Source: a virus
Taxonomy: Duplodnaviria > Caudoviricetes
Length of the DNA: 64,000 nucleotides
Virus record (IMG/VR): IMGVR_UViG_3300035498_000654
Coordinates: 18,703-82,702 of that record
Strand: one strand, 5' to 3'
Numbering within the stretch: position 1 is the stretch's first letter; the number at the start of each line of letters is the position of its first letter. Positions 12,001-55,232 of the stretch are shown here, piece after piece. Under the pieces are notes generated by a model. It made no database searches, was not told where the DNA came from, and saw only the letters and a program-made list of their open reading frames with translations. The position numbers and the translations under genes were made by a program.

Positions 12001-13236
12001 ATGCTAAGAGCAGTTAAAATAAGATTATATCCTAACAAAACACAAGAAGTTCAAATTAACAAACTTCTTGGTTGTTGTCGTGTTGTTTATAATCAATGTC
12101 TTGCTCGAAAAATAGAATCTTATAACAAAGAGAATAAAACTGAAAACTTATCGTCTTTAAGTAAGTGGTTTCATCATGATTTGATTAATAATCCAGATTT
12201 TATTTGGTTGAAAGAACAAAACACAAATGTTCTTCAACAATCAATAATGGATATGTTGAATGCTTATAAACGATTCTTTACATTGCATACAGGCTATCCA
12301 AAGTTTAAATCAAAACACGATAATAAACAATCTTGTAGATTTACAATAAATGCTATTTCAAAAAGAAATAACTACCTATCTTATAAATTATCACTTGCAA
12401 ATATAAGAGATATTAAATTTAGATGTAATAAACTATATTCAAAGTACCTTCAAGATAACAAGTCAAATATAAAGTCTGCAACTTTAAGCAAGTTGCCATG
12501 TGGTTAGTATTACTTATCAATCTTAGTTGATGGTTGTTTATTACATAAAGTTAAAGATACTGATAAAATAATTGGCTTTGACCTTGGAGTTAAAAACTTT
12601 ATTACTACATCAGAAGGTAATGTTTTTGAAAACTTACATTTTAAAAAATCAGAATACAAGAAAATTAAGAAACTTCAAAGACAGCTTTCCAAAAAGAAAG
12701 TTGGTTCTAACAACAGAAACAAAGCAAGGATTAAACTTGCAAAAGTATATAAAGTCATAACAGATCGTAAATCAAACTATTTGCATAAGGTGTCTAATTC
12801 ATTAATTGATGAAAATCAAGTCATTTGTATGGAGGACTTAAATGTAAAAGGAATGATTAAAAATCACAGACTTTCAGATTCAATATCTGAAATGAATTTT
12901 GGAGAATTCAGAAGAATACTTGAATACAAGAGTTTATGGTATAATAGAAAGTTAGTTTTTATAGATAGATTTTATCCTTCATCTAAGAGATGCAATCATT
13001 GTGGTTATATTAATAAATCACTTAAATTGCCAGATAGACAATGGACTTGCCCAGACTGCGGATCTATCATTGATAGAGACTATAATGCATCACTTAATAT
13101 CTTAGAAGAAGGCCAAAGAATAATAGGTTGCAGTACAACCAAATTTAAGCTTGTGGACTATCCAACTATGGATGACAAGGAAGTAATTCCCCTAAAAAGT
13201 AGTGATAGGTTGAAGCAAGAAGTTAAAAATGAATAA
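12001..13236 (+). CDS. tnpB: TnpB RNA-guided endonuclease (411 aa; one TAG at 12505-12507 read as Gln)
   Basis: HTH start MLRAVKIRLYPN, RuvC FDLG/MEDL/DRDYNA, CxxC..CPxCG Zn finger; the frame is continuous across the TAG. Confidence 0.9.
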
Positions 13237-13265
13237 ACTTAAATTTATTTAAATTTTAATATACT
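13119..13265 (+). ncRNA. Predicted omega-RNA scaffold/right end of tnpB copy 1
   Basis: Shares ataataggttgcagtac..gtggactatcc..cctaaaaagt..ttttaatatac with the other copies. Confidence 0.55.
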
Positions 13266-13271
13266 TTCATA

Positions 13272-31500: not shown

Positions 31501-32120
31501 GAAATATATTTAAAATCAGTAAAATCTACATGATTCTCAATATCATCTTTTAATGAATTGAATACACCAGGACGATATGTTAATAATAAAACATTTTTAT
31601 ATCCAAGTGTTTTAACCGCTTGTAAAAATGTAAAATTCTTTCCGAATCTCATTTTTGCTGCTAATAAAAATTCACCATTATTATTTTTAAAATATTCAAC
31701 AATTTTATCATGAGCAGCTTGTTGAGGTTTACGCATTTTATATGCATTTAATCTACGGCTACCATATAAAAATTCATGCAGTAATGCTTTCGGAATATCT
31801 GGATTTTCAAATTCAAACCATTCACGATCTGCATCTTCTCTATACTTTAAATAACCTTTATTATGTTCCAAAAAATCATGGAATTTCTTATCAACGTGTT
31901 CAACATCTGTCATAAAATCATCAGGAACACTTTCACACCAAACTAATACATTTGGCTCAGAATTAGATTCTTTATCCTGTTGTTTTATACGAATCAAAGC
32001 CGAATCTTTCATAGATTCAGCTTCTATACCAGTATCGCCAATCTTATAAATTGGATTTTTTCCTAATTGTGTACGATAACTATTTAATTCTTTATGCTGA
32101 TAACAATATATGGTTCTCAT
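28551..32120 (-). CDS. Restriction-modification-like fusion: T5orf172/GIY-YIG-like nuclease, SF2 (ResIII) helicase, Eco57I-type methyltransferase
   Basis: IYKIGDT..REWFEF; LAAKMRFGKN, TDECHYG, ISGTPF, QAMFRGQS; VQNPPY, IIEPATWL. Confidence 0.75.
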   Translation of the reverse strand: MRTIYCYQHKELNSYRTQLGKNPIYKIGDTGIEAESMKDSALIRIKQQDKESNSEPNVLVWCESVPDDFMTDVEHVDKKFHDFLEHNKGYLKYREDADREWFEFENPDIPKALLHEFLYGSRRLNAYKMRKPQQAAHDKIVEYFKNNNGEFLLAAKMRFGKNFTFLQAVKTLGYKNVLLLTYRPGVFNSLKDDIENHVDFTDFKYISFSDNKDKLTLSDNNVNIVTCSVQMAGYRYNDETNDFEKDNNTTNKLFKKNLKTLASYKWDLIVTDECHYGTTTENFNSICNTLKCSKILYISGTPFKQINEFKDNNLFTYTYLDEQDAEDYKMPKLRQYAIKMDSKLIDYYHKNIEMVDYPNMKKLFQADANGDFKYGDISKQTIKFIIDKLNNTNNGEFKHGLALMDYKDSVKAIVKFINDTYKNIHAIDGSNDIVNVDKLKEIIKRNDNKGIKTITFSCGRFIEGVTISEWNTVIMLQDGASPERYFQAMFRGQSPAEGKEDFYVFDYNPERMLSLNYGFISQLSKCKKSYKNIDKEVIIKEWLKAAPIIRWDDQLSDQQFVEVNYRDIENAYFKNDKIGASKFCDSSLYNLYHNINITQSEIKDITSCLDKSFNGKILNKDPKSVSVNDNGISGAKNRVSVISVNSDNTQFNKPDNKNNKKYSISELVALVKNHMHYISRYIVIYNCQNTSDIIKTLEDNIDNNQLIFERSTGITNYQVFKIIIDKHIIKEDEFNYSISQLWEELNKVSNMDANTKYATYKRWNLFNYRAIPQSICDNIINDIDSSIFKNKNIKICDLTIENDYIINILIDKFMDGLSNDILDRKERNNYILNNIIYACTTSDITKRIITKICNIKNIYSCQVKNKNIEYIDNMPKFDYIVQNPPYSGTLHIDFFNKGLDLLNKNGKMIIIEPATWLVNIRKNGNAKTIYEPLKNRIKNHVSKIIVDNYTKEFNIRIFAGLSITNIDLSKEYDTIDYSICGYKQKVNSVYDCNLIGEYNTIWSILNKLLSYKDMVSDHLYKKDNIILNDQKYLQYNFIGVPLITARSHGNRFDELFSKYYYRLCGYSDVLDELPKNKNGDEIKYLIQGTKEELENYKHLVYNTNLPIFLSYVLTIDQNNNVLPFIPWLVDKKYTTEEIYKLFKFTDDEISLIEKTCKKYSIESVFAKRMYDGPSSEITDDEVKDYIDNL

Positions 32121-32126
32121 AGTATA

Positions 32127-33380
32127 TTAAAATATGAACAAAACTTGTTTACTTTTAATTTCTTGCTTCATTCTATCACTACTTTTTAGGTTCATTTCTG
32201 AACGATCATCCATAGTTGGATAGTCCACAAGCTTAAATTCGGCTGTACTGCAACCTATTATTCTTTGGCCTTCTTCTAAAATATTTAATGCGGCATTGTA
32301 GTCTCTATCTATGATAGAACCGCAATCAGGACAAGTCCATTGTCTATCACTTAATTTAAGTGACTTATTAATAAAACCACAATGATTGCATCTTTTAGAG
32401 GAAGGATAGTATCTGTCGATAAAAACTAATCGTCTATTATACCATAGACTTTTGTATTCAAGTATTCTTCTAAATTTACCAAAATTCATTTCAGATATTG
32501 AATCTGAAAGCTTATGGTTTTTAACCATTCCTTTTACATTTAAGTCCTCCATACAAATGACTTGATTTTCATCAATTAATAAATTAGACACCTTATGCAA
32601 ATAGTTTGATTTACGATCTGTTATGACTTTATATACTTTCGCAAGTTTAATTCTTGCTTTGTTTCTATTATTGGATCCAACTTTCTTTTTGGAAAGCTGT
32701 CTTTGTAACTTCTTTATTTTCTTATACTCAGATTTCTTAAAGTGCAGATTTTCAAAGACTTCTCCTTCTGATGTTGTAATAAAATTCTTAACACCCAGAT
32801 CAATACCAATTATACTGTTAGTATTTTTGACTTTATGTAATAAGCCACCATCAACTAAAATTGATAGATAATACTCACCACAAGGTAGCTTACTTAAAGT
32901 TGCTGACTTTATATTAAGTTTGTTATCTTGAAGATATTTTGAGTATAATTTGCTACATTTAAATTTAATATCTCTTATGTTTGCAAGAGACAATCTATAT
33001 GATAGATAGTTATTACGTTTAGAAATGGCATTTATTGTAAATCTACAAGATTGTTTATTATCATGCTTTGATTTAAACTTTGGATAACCATTATGTTGGA
33101 TAAAGAACCTTTTATAAGCATTCAACATATCCATTATTGATTGTTGAAGAACATTTGTATTTTGTTCTTTCAGCCATATAAATTCTGGATTATTAATTAA
33201 ATCATGATGAAACCAATAACTAAGAGAAGTTAAATTTTCTGTTTTCTTTTCAGCTTTATAAAATTCAATTTTACGAGCAAGACATTGATTATAAACAAAA
33301 CGACAACAACCAAGAAGTTTGTTAATTTGAACTTCTTGAGTCTTATTTGGATATAATCTTATTTTTATTGCTCTTAGCAT
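32127..33380 (-). CDS. tnpB: TnpB RNA-guided endonuclease
   Basis: HTH, GIDLG/MEDL/DRDYNAA RuvC triad, Zn finger; right end ttttaatatact abuts the ATG of the R-M gene. Confidence 0.92.
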   Translation of the reverse strand: MLRAIKIRLYPNKTQEVQINKLLGCCRFVYNQCLARKIEFYKAEKKTENLTSLSYWFHHDLINNPEFIWLKEQNTNVLQQSIMDMLNAYKRFFIQHNGYPKFKSKHDNKQSCRFTINAISKRNNYLSYRLSLANIRDIKFKCSKLYSKYLQDNKLNIKSATLSKLPCGEYYLSILVDGGLLHKVKNTNSIIGIDLGVKNFITTSEGEVFENLHFKKSEYKKIKKLQRQLSKKKVGSNNRNKARIKLAKVYKVITDRKSNYLHKVSNLLIDENQVICMEDLNVKGMVKNHKLSDSISEMNFGKFRRILEYKSLWYNRRLVFIDRYYPSSKRCNHCGFINKSLKLSDRQWTCPDCGSIIDRDYNAALNILEEGQRIIGCSTAEFKLVDYPTMDDRSEMNLKSSDRMKQEIKSKQVLFIF

Positions 33381-42240: not shown

Positions 42241-42248
42241 AAAATCTA

Positions 42249-43463
42249 ATGTTTCGAACAATAAAAATAAGGTTATATCCTAACAAAACACAAGAAGTTC
42301 AGATCAATAAACTTCTTGGTTGTTATCGTGTTGTCTATAATCAATGTCTTGCTCGAAAAATTGAATCTTATAACAAAGAGAAGAAAACTGAAAACTTATC
42401 TTCTTTAAGTAAATGGTTTCATCATGATTTGATTAATAACCCAGATTTTATATGGTTGAAAGAACAAAACACTAAAGTTCTTAAACAATCCATAATGGAT
42501 ATGTTAAATGCTTATAAAAATTTCTTTGAACGCCATATTGGTTATCCAAAGTTTAAATCAAAGCATGATAATAAGCAATCTTGTAGATTTGAAATAGCAA
42601 GTATATCTAAATGTAATAACTACCTATCTTATAGATTATCACTTGCAAATATAAGAGATATTAAATTTAAATGTAGTAAGTTATATTCAAAATATCTTCA
42701 GGATAATAAGCCAAATATAAAGTCGGCGACTTTAAGTAAACTACCATGTGGTGAGTATTACTTATCACTCTTAGTTGACGGTTGTCTAACTCATAAAGTC
42801 AAAGACACAAACAACATGGTTGGTATAGATCTTGGTATTAAGAATTTTATTATAACATCAAATGGAAATGTTTTTGAAAACCAACACTTTAAGAAATCAG
42901 AATATAAGAAAATAAAGAAGTTACAAAGACAACTTTCTAAGAAAGTTAAAGGCTCTAACAACAGAAATAAAGCAAGGATCAAACTTGCAAAAGTATATAA
43001 AACTATAACTGATTGTAAATCAAACTATTTACATAAAATATCCAATATACTAATTGATGAAAACCAAGTCATTTGTATGGAGGACTTAAATGTAAAAGGA
43101 ATGCTTAAGAATCATAAGCTTGCTGATTCAATATCAGAAATGAATTTTAGAGAATTTAGAAGAATATTGCAGTATAAAAGTTTGTGGTATAATAGACGAT
43201 TAGTCTTTATAGATAGATATTATCCTTCATCTAAGAGATGCAATCATTGTGGTTATATTAATAAGTCACTTAAATTGTCAGATAGACAATGGACTTGTCC
43301 TGACTGTGGTTCTATCATAGATAGAGATTATAATGCTGCATTGAATATTTTAGAAGAAGGACAAAGAATAATAAGTTGTAATGTAAATCCTATCTACATG
43401 GATAAACATTCAGAAATGAACCTAAAAAGTAGCTGTAGATTGAAGCAAGTAGTTAAAAACTGA
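42249..43463 (+). CDS. tnpB: TnpB RNA-guided endonuclease with shortened/diverged omega-RNA region
   Basis: GIDLG/MEDL/DRDYNAA, Zn finger; ATG 8 nt after the previous stop; 3' region lacks the gcagtac..gtggactatcc segment present in other copies. Confidence 0.92.
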   Translation: MFRTIKIRLYPNKTQEVQINKLLGCYRVVYNQCLARKIESYNKEKKTENLSSLSKWFHHDLINNPDFIWLKEQNTKVLKQSIMDMLNAYKNFFERHIGYPKFKSKHDNKQSCRFEIASISKCNNYLSYRLSLANIRDIKFKCSKLYSKYLQDNKPNIKSATLSKLPCGEYYLSLLVDGCLTHKVKDTNNMVGIDLGIKNFIITSNGNVFENQHFKKSEYKKIKKLQRQLSKKVKGSNNRNKARIKLAKVYKTITDCKSNYLHKISNILIDENQVICMEDLNVKGMLKNHKLADSISEMNFREFRRILQYKSLWYNRRLVFIDRYYPSSKRCNHCGYINKSLKLSDRQWTCPDCGSIIDRDYNAALNILEEGQRIISCNVNPIYMDKHSEMNLKSSCRLKQVVKN

Positions 43464-43580
43464 ACACACTTAACTTTGTTCAGATTTTAATATAATATTA
43501 ATTAAAAAATATTATATAGACAATTTTATTATTAATGCTATAATAAAATGTAAGTGAATACAAGAGTACATTGACTAAAT

Positions 43581-43664
43581 GGGGGATTGGCGTAATCGGT
43601 AGCCGCGACATGCTTAAACCGTGTTGTTCAATTGAACGTATGGGTTCAAGTCCCATATCCCCTA
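43581..43664 (+). tRNA. trnL: tRNA-Leu(TAA)
   Basis: Acceptor gggggat/atcccct, anticodon stem acatg/cgtgt with loop CT-TAA-AC, long variable arm, T-loop ttcaagt. Confidence 0.9.
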
Positions 43665-43693
43665 CAATTAATACTTTATAAGTATATTTAAAA

Positions 43694-43840
43694 AATAATA
43701 GGTTGCAGTACAACCGAATTTACGCTTGTGGACTATCCTCTTATGGATGACCGTTCAGAAATGAACCTAAAAAGTAATGATAGGATGAATCAAGAAATTA
43801 AAAATGAATAAATCTAATTTTGTTCAGATTTTAATATACT
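43694..43840 (+). ncRNA. Stand-alone TnpB omega-RNA scaffold/right end without a tnpB ORF
   Basis: Near-copy of the last ~145 nt of tnpB copies 1, 2 and 4 (aataataggttgcagtac..ttgttcagattttaatatact); no upstream tnpB sequence. Confidence 0.7.
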
Positions 43841-43927
43841 GTAGAGAGTATATACGAACAACCTAAGTCATTGATTATGATATGGTTATGACATAGTCCA
43901 AGCTGTAGTAGGCAAAACTATAGTAAG
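43841..43927 (+). other. 3' half of a group I intron (P7-P8-P9-omega G)
   Basis: gtagagagtatatacg (R-like), aacc/ggtt P8, atgac-atagtcc (S-like), P9 hairpin ctgtagt/actatag, terminal G directly before the tRNA exon. Confidence 0.65.
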
Positions 43928-43977
43928 AAAATCTCTTGGCCATTGCGGCTGTGCGGGTTCGAGTCCCGCTGGCGGTA
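43928..43977 (+). pseudogene. 3' exon of a tRNA-Leu (anticodon probably TAA); 5' exon not found in window
   Basis: aaaa-tctct anticodon 3' strand, long variable arm, gcggg-ttcgagt-cccgc T-arm, acceptor strand tggcggt-a. Confidence 0.7.
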
Positions 43978-43991
43978 CTAATAGCAAGAAT

Positions 43992-44030
43992 TTAAAATCT
44001 GAACAATAATTAGAATTGTTCAGATTTTAA
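43992..44030. repeat. Isolated 15-bp perfect hairpin derived from the TnpB right end
   Basis: ttaaaatctgaacaa-taattagaa-ttgttcagattttaa followed by tatac. Confidence 0.7.
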
Positions 44031-44070
44031 TATACAAATATTTTATTATTAACTAAATTGAAAATATAAT

Positions 44071-49924: not shown

Positions 49925-51166
49925 ATGTTTCGATCAATCAAAATAAGATTATATCCAAATAGCAATCAAGAAGTTCAAATTAATAAACTTCTTGGTTGTT
50001 ATCGTGCGGTTTATAATCAATGTCTTGCTCGAAAGATTGAATCTTATAAAACAAAGAAGAAAACAGAAAATCTAACTTCACTTGGTCATTGGTTTCATCA
50101 TGATTTGATTAATAATCCAGATTTTATATGGTTAAAGGAACAAAACACTAAGGTTCTTAAACAATCCATAATAGATATGTTAAGTGCATATAAACGGTTC
50201 TTTACATTGCATACAGGTTATCCAAAGTTTAAATCAAAACATGATAATAAACAATCTTGTAGATTTGAAATAGCAAGTATATCTAAACGTAATAACTATC
50301 TATCATATAAATTATCACTTGCTAACATTAAGAATATTAAGTTTAAATGTAGTAAATCATATTCAAAATACCTTCAAGATAACAAGTCAAATATAAAGTC
50401 AGCAACTTTAAGTAAACTGCCATGTGGTGAATACTACCTATCAATTTTGATTGATGGTTCTTTATTACATAAAGTTAAAGATACTGATAAAATGATTGGT
50501 ATTGATCTTGGGGTTAAAGACTTTGTTATCACCTCAAATGGTGAAGTTTTCAAAAACCGACACTTTAAGAAATCAGAATACAATAAAATCAAAAAGTTAA
50601 ATAAACAACTTTCTAAAAAGAAAGTTGGATCTAACAATAGAAACAAAGCAAGGATTAAGCTTGCAAAAGTATATAAGAAGATAACTGACAGAAAATCAAA
50701 CTATTTGCATAAAGTAAGTAATTCATTAATTGACGAAAACCAAGTCATTTGTATGGAGGACTTAAATGTGAAGAGCATGATTAAAAACCATAGACTCGCT
50801 GATTCAATATCTGAATTAAACTTTGGTGAGTTTAGAAGAATACTTGAATACAAGAGTTTATGGTATAATAGAAAGTTAGTTTTTATAGATAGATTTTATC
50901 CTTCATCTAAGAGATGCAATCAATGTGGTTATATTAATAAGACACTTAAGTTATCTGATAGACAATGGACTTGCCCAGAATGTGGTTCTATTATAGAACG
51001 TGACTATAATGCATCATTAAATATATTAGAAGAAGGACAAAGAATAATAGGTTGCAGTACAGCCGAATTTACGCTCGTGGACTATCCAACTATGGATGAC
51101 AAGGAAGTAATTCCCCTAAAAAGTAGTGGTAGAATGAAGCAAGAAGTTAAAAGTGAACAATTCTAA
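49925..51166 (+). CDS. tnpB: TnpB RNA-guided endonuclease
   Basis: GIDLG/MEDL/ERDYNA, Zn finger, full omega-RNA region with right-end hairpin to ~51190. Confidence 0.92.
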   Translation: MFRSIKIRLYPNSNQEVQINKLLGCYRAVYNQCLARKIESYKTKKKTENLTSLGHWFHHDLINNPDFIWLKEQNTKVLKQSIIDMLSAYKRFFTLHTGYPKFKSKHDNKQSCRFEIASISKRNNYLSYKLSLANIKNIKFKCSKSYSKYLQDNKSNIKSATLSKLPCGEYYLSILIDGSLLHKVKDTDKMIGIDLGVKDFVITSNGEVFKNRHFKKSEYNKIKKLNKQLSKKKVGSNNRNKARIKLAKVYKKITDRKSNYLHKVSNSLIDENQVICMEDLNVKSMIKNHRLADSISELNFGEFRRILEYKSLWYNRKLVFIDRFYPSSKRCNQCGYINKTLKLSDRQWTCPECGSIIERDYNASLNILEEGQRIIGCSTAEFTLVDYPTMDDKEVIPLKSSGRMKQEVKSEQF

Positions 51167-51412
51167 TTATTGTTCAGATTTTAATATACTGTAGTATAAC
51201 TACTAACTTATCGATTATTTTCACGATGGTTAAAATAAAAATTTTGCGAGGTGTACTACACCGAATAATCCGGTGGTTGACTAATAAAAAACCTCCGGAA
51301 CAAAAGCCAGAGATTGATAAAGATAAAACACCAGAAATAAAAGTAATTTCTTGTAAAGTGAAATCTATATCAACAAAATCAAAAATTTAAAAATATTTGA
51401 ATAACATCCAAA

Positions 51413-54063: not shown

Positions 54064-54138
54064 TGCCTCATAGTGTAATGGTTAGCACGAGGGACTCTAA
54101 CTCCCTACGTCTCTGTTCGAACCAGAGTGGGGCGACCA
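54064..54138 (+). tRNA. Amber suppressor tRNA (anticodon CTA), Gln-type body
   Basis: Anticodon stem aggga/tccct with loop CT-CTA-AC, T-arm ctctg-ttcgaac-cagag, U1 start, encoded CCA. Confidence 0.92.
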
Positions 54139-54550: not shown

Positions 54551-54724
54551 ATGAAGACAATTCTAATCATTATCGCAATTTTTTATGTGATATATTTTGC
54601 ATGGTTCATTTATGAAATTGTACATGCACCTTTAATATCAGATGAAGATGATTTAACGATAGAAGGTTTTACACAAGAGGAAATTGATAATTATCTTAAT
54701 AATCGGGGCCAACGTGGAAATTGA
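54551..54724 (+). CDS. 57-aa single-TM protein whose 3' end overlaps the tmRNA 5' end
   Basis: MKTILIIIAIFYVIYFAWFIYEIV..; directly downstream of promoter 54483-54504. Confidence 0.5.
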   Translation: MKTILIIIAIFYVIYFAWFIYEIVHAPLISDEDDLTIEGFTQEEIDNYLNNRGQRGN

Positions 54725-55070
54725 TTACAATCATAGTTGGTATAGGAATCATGTAGCGTCAACTGACTTTAAGTTGAAAAACTTCAAATTTAAACGGCGA
54801 ATATAACGAATATCGCATGGCTGCCTAACCTTGGAGGTTGGATGATTTTATTAGCCTGAGTGTGTACGACTTGCACTTGTAAACAGAATCAAAAAGTCGT
54901 GAAATGTAAACAAGGTAAGGTTTAATGAAAAAATAGTTAGTGAATATTGAAACCAACCTGTACCTGTAACAAGGTTTGATGAAAAAGACATTTACTAACA
55001 AAACTTGAAACATGTATAAATTCTTATACTGATTCTTTGTAAGACCGGGGTTCGACTCCCCGTGGCTCCA
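54705..55070 (+). ncRNA. ssrA: tmRNA, tag peptide (A)GEYNEYRMAA
   Basis: Acceptor ggggcca/tggctcc-a, T-arm cgggg-ttcgact-ccccg, tag ORF 54796-54828 ending MAA-TAA, similar in form to Bacteroidota GE..Y..AA tags. Confidence 0.9.
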
Positions 55071-55232
55071 CAATAATGATTGGACGGACGTTGTAAAACG
55101 TTGTTGGTATTATGGTTAGGCTGTTTGTGAAAATAGCCTAACTTTTTATTTTATAGTAAATACATTATCAAAATAAACATATACATGATAATTCTCTATA
55201 ATATAAAGAATTATATAAACATATAAATTAAA

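Follow-up and report, generated by a model that had tools for sequence, protein, structure and literature searches.

Within a 64,000-nt stretch of DNA from a huge gut phage, called the window below, an omega-RNA scaffold of the TnpB type stands without a tnpB gene, directly behind a complete tRNA-Leu and in front of what is very probably the remnant of a group I intron. We propose that this segment may be a functional omega-RNA gene, one of a class of solo guides met repeatedly in huge phages of Bacteroidetes type, and that its guide would be co-transcribed with the tRNA and used in trans by the TnpB nucleases of the phage for RNA-guided homing or marker exclusion. Having weighed the evidence, we regard this proposal as evenly balanced. 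The scaffold is intact, its RNA structure is under selection, solo scaffolds of this kind recur, their context is one of tRNAs and promoters, and several guides match uninterrupted alleles in relatives. The proposal draws further on the self-sparing pattern at two related loci, an empty locus in the relative L011, the degenerate scaffold of the neighbouring tnpB copy 3, the failure to find TnpA, and the fact that trans-acting stand-alone omega-RNAs are known.

The window is part of an 82.7-kb viral contig that is estimated to make up about 15% of its genome. In this AT-rich contig there are a tmRNA, a CTA suppressor tRNA and additional tRNAs; an Rfam search at gathering thresholds returned the tRNAs, the one tmRNA and nothing else in the contig. 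The best protein relatives among deposited phages are the Prevotella Lak megaphages. Since these matches are limited to 44–48% identity over part of one large protein, we class the source as a distant Lak-like huge phage. The features of the window are collected in Table 1.

Table 1. The solo scaffold, its surroundings and the tnpB copies of the window. Positions are those of the window; R1 is the scaffold covariance model described in the text.
Feature	Position	Strand	Remarks
tnpB copy 1 and scaffold	12001..13267	+	ORF 12001-13236; scaffold R1 155.7 bits
tnpB copy 2 and scaffold	32119..33380	-	ORF 32127-33380; scaffold R1 148.8 bits
tnpB copy 3 (404 aa)	42249..43463	+	HTH_OrfB_IS605, OrfB_IS605 and Cas12f1-like TNB (Pfam); closest candidate to use the solo guide
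Degenerate scaffold of tnpB copy 3	43365..43498	+	Stem 1 and 5′ strand of the long-range helix missing; R1 40.3 bits
Promoter-like site	43517..43544	+	TAGACA-16-TATAAT, preceded by TG; 11 of 12 consensus positions
tRNA-Leu(UAA), "tRNA-Leu*", complete	43581..43665	+	ARAGORN; Rfam tRNA 49 bits
Solo omega-RNA scaffold/right end without tnpB	43692..43842	+	Homology from ~43688; R1 161.7 bits over full model 1-153 (partly circular, see text)
Presumed guide AGAGAGTATATACGAACAAC	43843..43862	+	Directly 3′ of right end TATACTGT, as in all family members; J6/7-P7-P3′-like intron sequence
3′ remnant of probable group I intron	43843..43926	+	R-like element, P8, S element ATGACATAGTCC, P9 hairpin, terminal G
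3′ exon of older tRNA-Leu(UAA), A35 to discriminator	43927..43976	+	48 of 50 nt as in the 3′ half of the intact L011 tRNA-Leu
Isolated right-end terminal hairpin	43992..44036	.	Perfect 16-bp palindrome, then TTTTAATATAC; repeat family D19; R1 21.6 bits, E 0.21
tnpB copy 4 and scaffold	49925..51192	+	ORF 49925-51166; scaffold R1 156.0 bits

The preliminary description had recognised in this segment the conserved 3′ tail of the tnpB elements, free of coding sequence and beginning 30 nt after a tRNA-Leu, and both observations are borne out. A repeat search returned positions 43690–43840 as the third copy of a 151-nt 3′ tail common to tnpB copies 1 and 4, at 83% identity, and a search of the whole contig showed the solo scaffold to be 87, 84 and 83% identical to the tails of copies 2, 4 and 1, respectively. 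The scaffold of copy 2, which is the closest, also has the same variable hairpin. The homology begins at AATAATAGG (~43688–43692) and ends with the right end. By these identities and its full-length match to R1, the scaffold has the origin expected of an omega-RNA, in a tnpB 3′ end and transposon right end. No tnpB coding homology precedes residue-equivalent ~375 of TnpB in the alignment, and no ORF of at least 80 aa lies between 43463 and 44071. The scaffold has no attached effector ORF, and compatible TnpBs are encoded elsewhere in the genome. The gap between the tRNA and the first scaffold stem is 34 nt.

The tRNA in front, tRNA-Leu*, shows no sequence relationship to the older tRNA-Leu that it has displaced, and it starts at the same point as the tRNA-Leu of L011. 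No match that would indicate its origin was found in the viral contigs or the phage collection. We ruled out tRNA-Leu* as the 5′ exon of a split tRNA, since it forms a whole tRNA and there is no pairing between its acceptor stem and the remnant. The spacer that bears the promoter-like site is conserved in L011, upstream of its tRNA-Leu, and the plus strand has no other promoter-like site before the scaffold. The locus thus reads, in order: the conserved spacer with the promoter-like site, the foreign tRNA-Leu*, the solo scaffold, the guide, the rest of the intron, the old 3′ exon and a right-end hairpin. This last hairpin (43992–44036) is terminator-like on a scan; it may be the terminator of a tRNA–guide transcript or have been left by some other event. 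The loop of this hairpin reads as the reverse complement of that in copy 4, and no TGT follows TTTTAATATAC. The terminal hairpin of the scaffold itself, with its TTTT, also has a terminator-like shape and is located before the guide, which counts against a working guide.

The state of the scaffold was judged against its relatives, which were collected from public viral contigs by an exact 24-base motif, a procedure that would miss decayed copies. The scan gave 41 matches in 40 loci and, together with four in the window's own contig, 45 scaffolds. In the RNAalifold consensus of 32 distinct scaffolds, there are 21 pairs, six of which show double compensatory changes. Stem 1 (GGNNG/CNNCC) and the variable hairpin covary heavily, and three more helices are invariant or changed on one side only. 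Because of the many double compensatory changes in stem 1 and the variable hairpin, we conclude that the RNA structure of the scaffold is under selection.

The solo copy of the window shares this covariation-supported structure, keeping 20 of the 21 consensus pairs; the exception is the terminal pair 38/111, which is U-U. Among the 89 columns conserved at 90% or more, it deviates at two, columns 50 and 98, and these two form a compensatory pair, C-G to U-A. Solo copies as a group depart from the conserved columns 2.0 times on average, compared with 2.75 times for tnpB-linked copies. On the covariance model R1, the solo copy scores above copies 4, 1 and 2 (Table 1) and above the second solo copy of the contig (144.9 bits), with the copy 3 scaffold far below; R1 was built from the scaffold alignment, with all the copies named here except copy 3 in the training set, and the solo score is therefore partly circular. 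It had been allowed from the outset that relatives might expose the segment as a deletion remnant in neutral decay. The comparison with other solo loci, the intactness of the copy and its compensatory pair speak against decay.

The guide begins at position 43843 (AGAGAGTATATACGAAC...). From the right end to a terminal G there are 84–86 nt, which contain an R-like GTAGAGAGTATATACG, a small hairpin, the S element and a CTGTAG...CTATAG hairpin; the 5′ strand of P7 is GAGTA. A search of the whole contig with RF00028 at E ≤ 10 gave no hit. A 5′-truncated match to the same family spans 43836–43923 (model positions 162–253; 9.6 bits, E 1.8–2.9), with high posterior over the S element and P9. Alignment with L011 and L010, whose tRNA-Leu(UAA) genes are intact, places the last intron base, G43926, exactly at the U34/A35 boundary, where group I introns classically interrupt tRNA-Leu(UAA). 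An insertion between U34 and A35 that ends in G is the arrangement found here. With a weak Rfam score and this position as the basis, the flank is probably a group I intron remnant. The preliminary description had assigned the guide to the J6/7–P7 region of such an intron. The position fits an intron before A35, but the guide starts 2–3 nt later than was described, and the intron, at 9.6 bits, is probable.

The tRNA gene that would have housed this intron is represented by its 3′ half, which is 86.5% identical to a Bacteroidetes-type tRNA-Leu in the phage fragment L010. A pattern search of the 82.7-kb contig found no convincing 5′ exon, and the 5′ part of the intron (P1–P6) is likewise absent from the contig; the intron sequence is therefore a remnant and not a working intron. 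At the same locus, L011 has an uninterrupted tRNA-Leu(UAA) behind the same promoter-bearing spacer, and no tnpB. The cassette of the window is thus flanked by an L011-type upstream spacer and the 3′ half of an L011-type tRNA-Leu. Searches for orthologous loci by way of the downstream gene returned the L011 contig alone among viral contigs and, in the phage collection, only distant proteins of less than 30% identity. No orthologue found in this way carries the cassette at this exact locus.

The four TnpBs that might use the guide are mutually 81–90% identical. Copy 1 was identified by its 84–90% protein identity to copies 2–4; it has one in-frame TAG, and the ORF is open only if TAG is read as Q. 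The window that holds this copy also holds a CTA suppressor tRNA (54064–54138) and a tmRNA (54705–55073). Copies 2–4 have the usual TnpB domains in Pfam, and when copy 2 is aligned to solved TnpB structures, the RuvC triad motifs DLG, EDLN and DRD are in place. All copies begin at the ATG or a few nt before it, with no intron sequence at these left boundaries. Copy 3, which is 81–84% identical to the other three, has an intact ORF, and the gap in its scaffold is visible in the alignment and in its R1 score of 40.3 bits, compared with 149–162 bits for the other copies. Since its own scaffold is without stem 1 and half of the long-range helix, copy 3 probably needs a scaffold in trans. It lies about 200 nt upstream of the solo scaffold, and if the solo guide works, copy 3 would be its natural first user.

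Solo scaffolds form a recurrent class. In a tblastn search with TnpB, 13 of the 45 scaffolds had no tnpB in front. Twelve of these 13 begin at TnpB residue-equivalent 371–376, and the remaining one, L043, keeps a longer stump from 353; at least 11 other solo scaffolds in huge-phage contigs thus share roughly the start boundary of the window copy. The variable hairpins of the solo copies are those of different tnpB-linked subfamilies, and for this reason we suggest that the solo copies had several origins, or underwent exchange, with the same 5′ limit being reached. A complete, co-oriented tRNA lies 8–75 nt upstream of the solo scaffold in L030 and L032 (both tRNA-Lys), L016, L033 and the window, and a promoter-like TTTG/TAnnTTTG sequence lies upstream in L017, L043 and L026. 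Co-oriented tRNA arrays hold five of 11 independent solo loci and two of 23 full-length elements (Fisher p = 0.024). The contig has a second tnpB-less scaffold outside the window, at C1:10735-10889 (L005:1503-1655), with the same 5′ limit and an AT-rich guide, ATTAATAAATTAAATA; about 60 nt upstream of it resemble the left flank of tnpB copy 2.

Relatives also show what such guides may recognise. The L024 guide has a 16/16 match in L039 with the 5′ flank GGGT, and the L032b guide has a 16/16 match, again flanked by GGGT, to the T arm of an intact tRNA-Glu in L016. The homologue of the copy 4 protospacer in the relative G001 is flanked by GGTGT; the flank of tnpB copy 1 has no counterpart in that relative. 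A guide directly 3′ of the right end, together with an element-free and suitably flanked site in a relative, was found for L024, L032b, L030, L032a and copy 4. Six cases, three of them in tRNA T-arm contexts, suggest GNGT as the candidate TAM. In the right ends, the corresponding position –4 is occupied by C (CGGT or CTGT), and from these few cases, we infer that this C would protect the element itself. The preliminary description had called for a consistent TAM in the 5′ flank of the targets; GNGT-like flanks are present at the protospacers of relatives, but for the window guide no target was found.

The loci L030:6040-6420 and L032:352-732, from two related huge phages, are orthologous and 95% identical, and each consists of a tRNA-Lys, a solo scaffold and a T-arm remnant. 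Their differences cluster in the guide and in the T arm of the functional tRNA. The L030 guide mismatches its own tRNA-Lys at positions 2, 5, 15, 16 and 18 and the L032 tRNA-Lys at 13, 16 and 18; the L032 guide mismatches its own tRNA-Lys at 2, 5, 13 and 18 and the L030 tRNA-Lys at 15. Each guide is thus mismatched to its own tRNA-Lys at seed positions 2 and 5 and nearly matches the allele of the other phage. A nuclease that leaves its own genome alone and attacks the allele of a rival would be expected to show such a pattern, which looks like reciprocal RNA-guided allele targeting.

A target for the window guide was sought in several collections. Exact scans of public viral contigs with two intron or guide words found no match to a target or to an intact intron allele, and metagenome contigs scanned with a degenerate S–P9 word and a terminal-G-plus-exon word gave no match either. 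Among sequencing runs, no RNA run with this stretch was found, which speaks neither for nor against its expression, and one run with a small share of matching sequence contained only host-type tRNA-Leu and other scaffolds, with no read across the locus. The 18-mer consisting of GT and the guide has eight hits in genome contigs, compared with about 17 expected by chance on our estimate; all eight are in ordinary coding DNA and none in a mobile element or tRNA. One of them (L064:327-344, on the Prevotellaceae MAG contig JAITKY010000203.1) matches GT and the 16-nt guide exactly, has a GTGT flank, and lies within an unannotated 143-aa ORF that adjoins leuA-like and folE genes. As the number of hits is below the chance expectation, this match is probably fortuitous. 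The preliminary description had proposed a trans-acting guide aimed at intron-bearing tRNA loci. The first half of that idea gains from the intact scaffold, the recurrence of the class behind co-oriented tRNAs and the presence of compatible TnpBs; for the second half, no such intron-bearing tRNA-Leu allele was found in any of the collections searched.

The way in which the elements sit in their sites bears on how they spread. In the known empty alleles, the right junction is exact, and the sequence on the 5′ side of the target has been exchanged, not just interrupted. When the L024 contig (L056/L057; G006) is compared with L039, a 2005-nt block with tnpB is seen in place of 259 nt immediately 5′ of the protospacer. 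The gene concerned, of 259 aa, is thereby split into two ORFs (143 and 141 aa), and the replaced stretch equals the lost one in codons (86). Where L011 has a tRNA-Cys and a 91-nt spacer (L011:3602-3674), the window has tnpB copy 3 (42241–43494), which starts 8 nt past the stop codon of the upstream gene. At the solo locus, tRNA-Leu* has taken the place of the 5′ exon and of the intron's 5′ part. The 65 nt that follow the right end of copy 4 (51193–51257) are in the opposite orientation in L060:1501-1565, where they are bounded by GGTGTAGT; the window has the complement of GGTGTAGT. Searches of the contig and five large relatives revealed no Y1 TnpA. A serine recombinase was found neither in the contig nor in three of the five, including one complete genome; the other two have a resolvase domain. 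On comparison with published systems, the site pattern resembles that of T4-like free-standing homing endonuclease cassettes with co-conversion of one flank, and IS605/IS607 transposition appears to fit less well (PMC13565253, PMC10690162).

If the guide works, events might run as follows. The conserved promoter at 43517–43544 would drive one RNA that contains tRNA-Leu* and the guide. Excision of the tRNA by RNase P and RNase Z would free the 5′ side, and TnpB may trim the remainder. The RNA would be loaded in trans by the 81–90% identical, nuclease-intact TnpBs, of which copy 3 would be the most obvious user. The complex would then cut GNGT followed by AGAGAGTATATACGAA, the J6/7–P7 core of the intron in the tRNA-Leu(UAA) allele that was presumably once at this locus. 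In a co-infecting relative, the broken allele would be repaired from the cassette-bearing genome, so that tRNA-Leu* and the guide overwrite the rival, as "intronless" homing or marker exclusion. tRNA-Leu* would supply the tRNA function that is destroyed and, since it has no intron, would be immune to the guide.

We advance more tentatively, as a possibility that falls short of an even case, the wider proposal that huge phages run a tRNA-processed, multi-guide TnpB system in which "tRNA plus omega-RNA" cassettes overwrite the tRNA alleles of rivals and bring an immune replacement tRNA. The reciprocal allele warfare suggested for L030 and L032 would belong to this system, and the window would be its tRNA-Leu/group I intron instance, which we put forward with the same reserve. 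If the role proposed for the window guide is right, TnpB in phages would act as a homing or exclusion endonuclease that several guides can program, which would bring it closer to CRISPR with its effector-plus-guide-array logic, and the strong rearrangement of megaphage tRNA gene clusters would be explained.

The main rival to a working guide is a recent and still intact relic; MITE-like and other-task readings are less likely. A full-length tnpB element would have resided in the intron of the resident tRNA-Leu, and a later rearrangement would have introduced tRNA-Leu* at the expense of the tnpB ORF, the 5′ exon and two-thirds of the intron from its 5′ side, leaving the scaffold as recent debris. 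The resident tRNA gene is clearly dead, with its 5′ exon and P1–P6 absent, and its 3′ half differs from that of L011 at only two of 50 positions, as a recent event would allow; another truncated right end lies 150 nt downstream, and the longer tnpB 3′ remnant of L043 indicates that deletion series exist. We nevertheless consider this explanation unlikely, since 12 of the 13 solo copies, from different subfamilies, have one common 5′ boundary, solo copies show no excess of changes at conserved columns, the only changes in the window copy are compensatory, and solo copies are enriched behind tRNAs and promoters.

That the segment is a non-autonomous, MITE- or PATE-like IS605/IS607 element, mobilised by a TnpA supplied in trans by phage or host, with the guide serving only "restorative homing" after excision, seems to us distinctly improbable. 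Such an element keeps both transposon ends, and the window copy does not: the 34 nt between tRNA-Leu* and the scaffold contain no left-end-like sequence. The contig and one complete relative genome yielded neither class of TnpA, and the sequence 5′ of the target is replaced in G006 (259 nt), at copy 3 (the tRNA-Cys region) and at the solo copy (the tRNA 5′ half). These points have to be set against the description of stand-alone omega-RNAs as "evidently mobilized" (PMC10691335), the left-end-like ~60 nt of the second solo copy of the contig, the resolvase domain in two of five large relatives, and the CGGT/CTGT right end and GNGT flank, which are reminiscent of IS607-type elements with their GG core and TGGG target (PMC10690162). 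Least probable of all, and in our view very much so, is a different task for the guide: it would turn TnpB on the Prevotella host or on some unrelated competitor, or would serve as an RNA decoy, as a regulator or as transcription terminator of the tRNA operon. The exact 16-nt protospacer with its GTGT flank in L064 could be read in this way, VIPR, another phage system, is reported to use solo guide RNAs in mobile-element conflicts (bioRxiv 10.64898/2026.10.15.759431), and the right-end hairpin and T-run resemble a terminator. The shortfall of 18-mer hits relative to chance, their absence from mobile elements and tRNAs, and the probably fortuitous nature of the host match argue otherwise, as does the nuclease triad kept in the TnpBs, which speaks against a role as repressor only.

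Stand-alone omega-RNAs of the OMEGA systems (IscB/IsrB/TnpB) are reported to work in trans with compatible effectors (PMC10691335, citing Altae-Tran et al. 2021), and their biological role is stated there to be unknown. The window copy is like them in being an effector-less scaffold with its own guide in a genome that has compatible effector loci. In contrast to them, it is in a phage, inside a predicted tRNA transcription unit and directly behind a complete tRNA; it lies beside the remnant of a displaced gene, has no recognisable left end, and belongs to a class enriched in tRNA arrays. Stand-alone omega-RNAs as such are already known, and the tRNA-linked phage arrangement would be new. The case offers a concrete role for them, which we propose to be that of a guide uncoupled from the nuclease gene, expressed from a tRNA operon and aimed at a displaced allele.

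TnpB-driven homing has been documented for IS605/IS607 elements and plasmids (Meers et al. 2023, 10.1101/2023.03.14.532601; PMC10690162; PMC11870625, a plasmid gene drive; reviewed in PMC13565253). There, as proposed here, the guide corresponds to the sequence that flanks the right end on its 3′ side, an element-free allele beside a TAM is targeted, and repair copies the element. The window differs in that no TnpA was found and no excision step is implied, the copied unit would be a tRNA-plus-guide cassette without nuclease gene, and the sequence 5′ of the target is replaced. In T4-like phages, intronless homing or localized marker exclusion is carried out by free-standing homing endonucleases, including SegB in the T4 tRNA region (cited in PMC13565253). 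There, as in our proposal, co-infection leads to cutting of the rival allele, sequence differences shield self, inheritance of the tRNA region is favoured, and flanking sequence is co-converted. Unlike in T4, recognition here would be by an RNA guide, which is separable from the nuclease gene and can be multiplied.

IStrons are group I introns fused to an IS605/IS607 element (PMC10690162, PMC4227781). They share with the window the physical joining of a group I intron and a TnpB guide RNA, with the guide adjoining intron sequence. In IStrons, the ribozyme is at the left end, the 3′ splice site is the right end, and the guide is in the exon, whereas the window scaffold precedes the J6/7–P9 part of the intron, and the 5′ two-thirds of the ribozyme are missing. 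We rejected the IStron as an identity for the segment; the tnpB copies are without the 5′ part of an intron, and 84 nt of intron follow the right end.

A guide RNA next to a tRNA is also the layout of the engineered polycistronic tRNA-gRNA arrays that Xie, Minkenberg and Yang reportedly introduced in 2015 as a laboratory design for Cas9, in which RNase P and RNase Z are said to release the guide. We found no description of a natural TnpB counterpart of these arrays in the literature searched, nor of solo omega-RNAs in phage tRNA operons, of tRNA-plus-guide cassettes or of reciprocal allele targeting between phages. If our proposal is true, the locus would show that expressing tRNA-flanked guides for a very small nuclease has a precedent in nature.

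The "tRNA introns" of Lak phages, which have been called enigmatic, are inserts of about 93 nt (PMC6784885, Table S6); they are unrelated to the scaffold and represent a different kind of insert. A group I intron is present on the minus strand of Lak-A1 (L052, MK250015.1:209334-209571; RF00028, 46 bits, E 3e-11), in a region without a tRNA gene.
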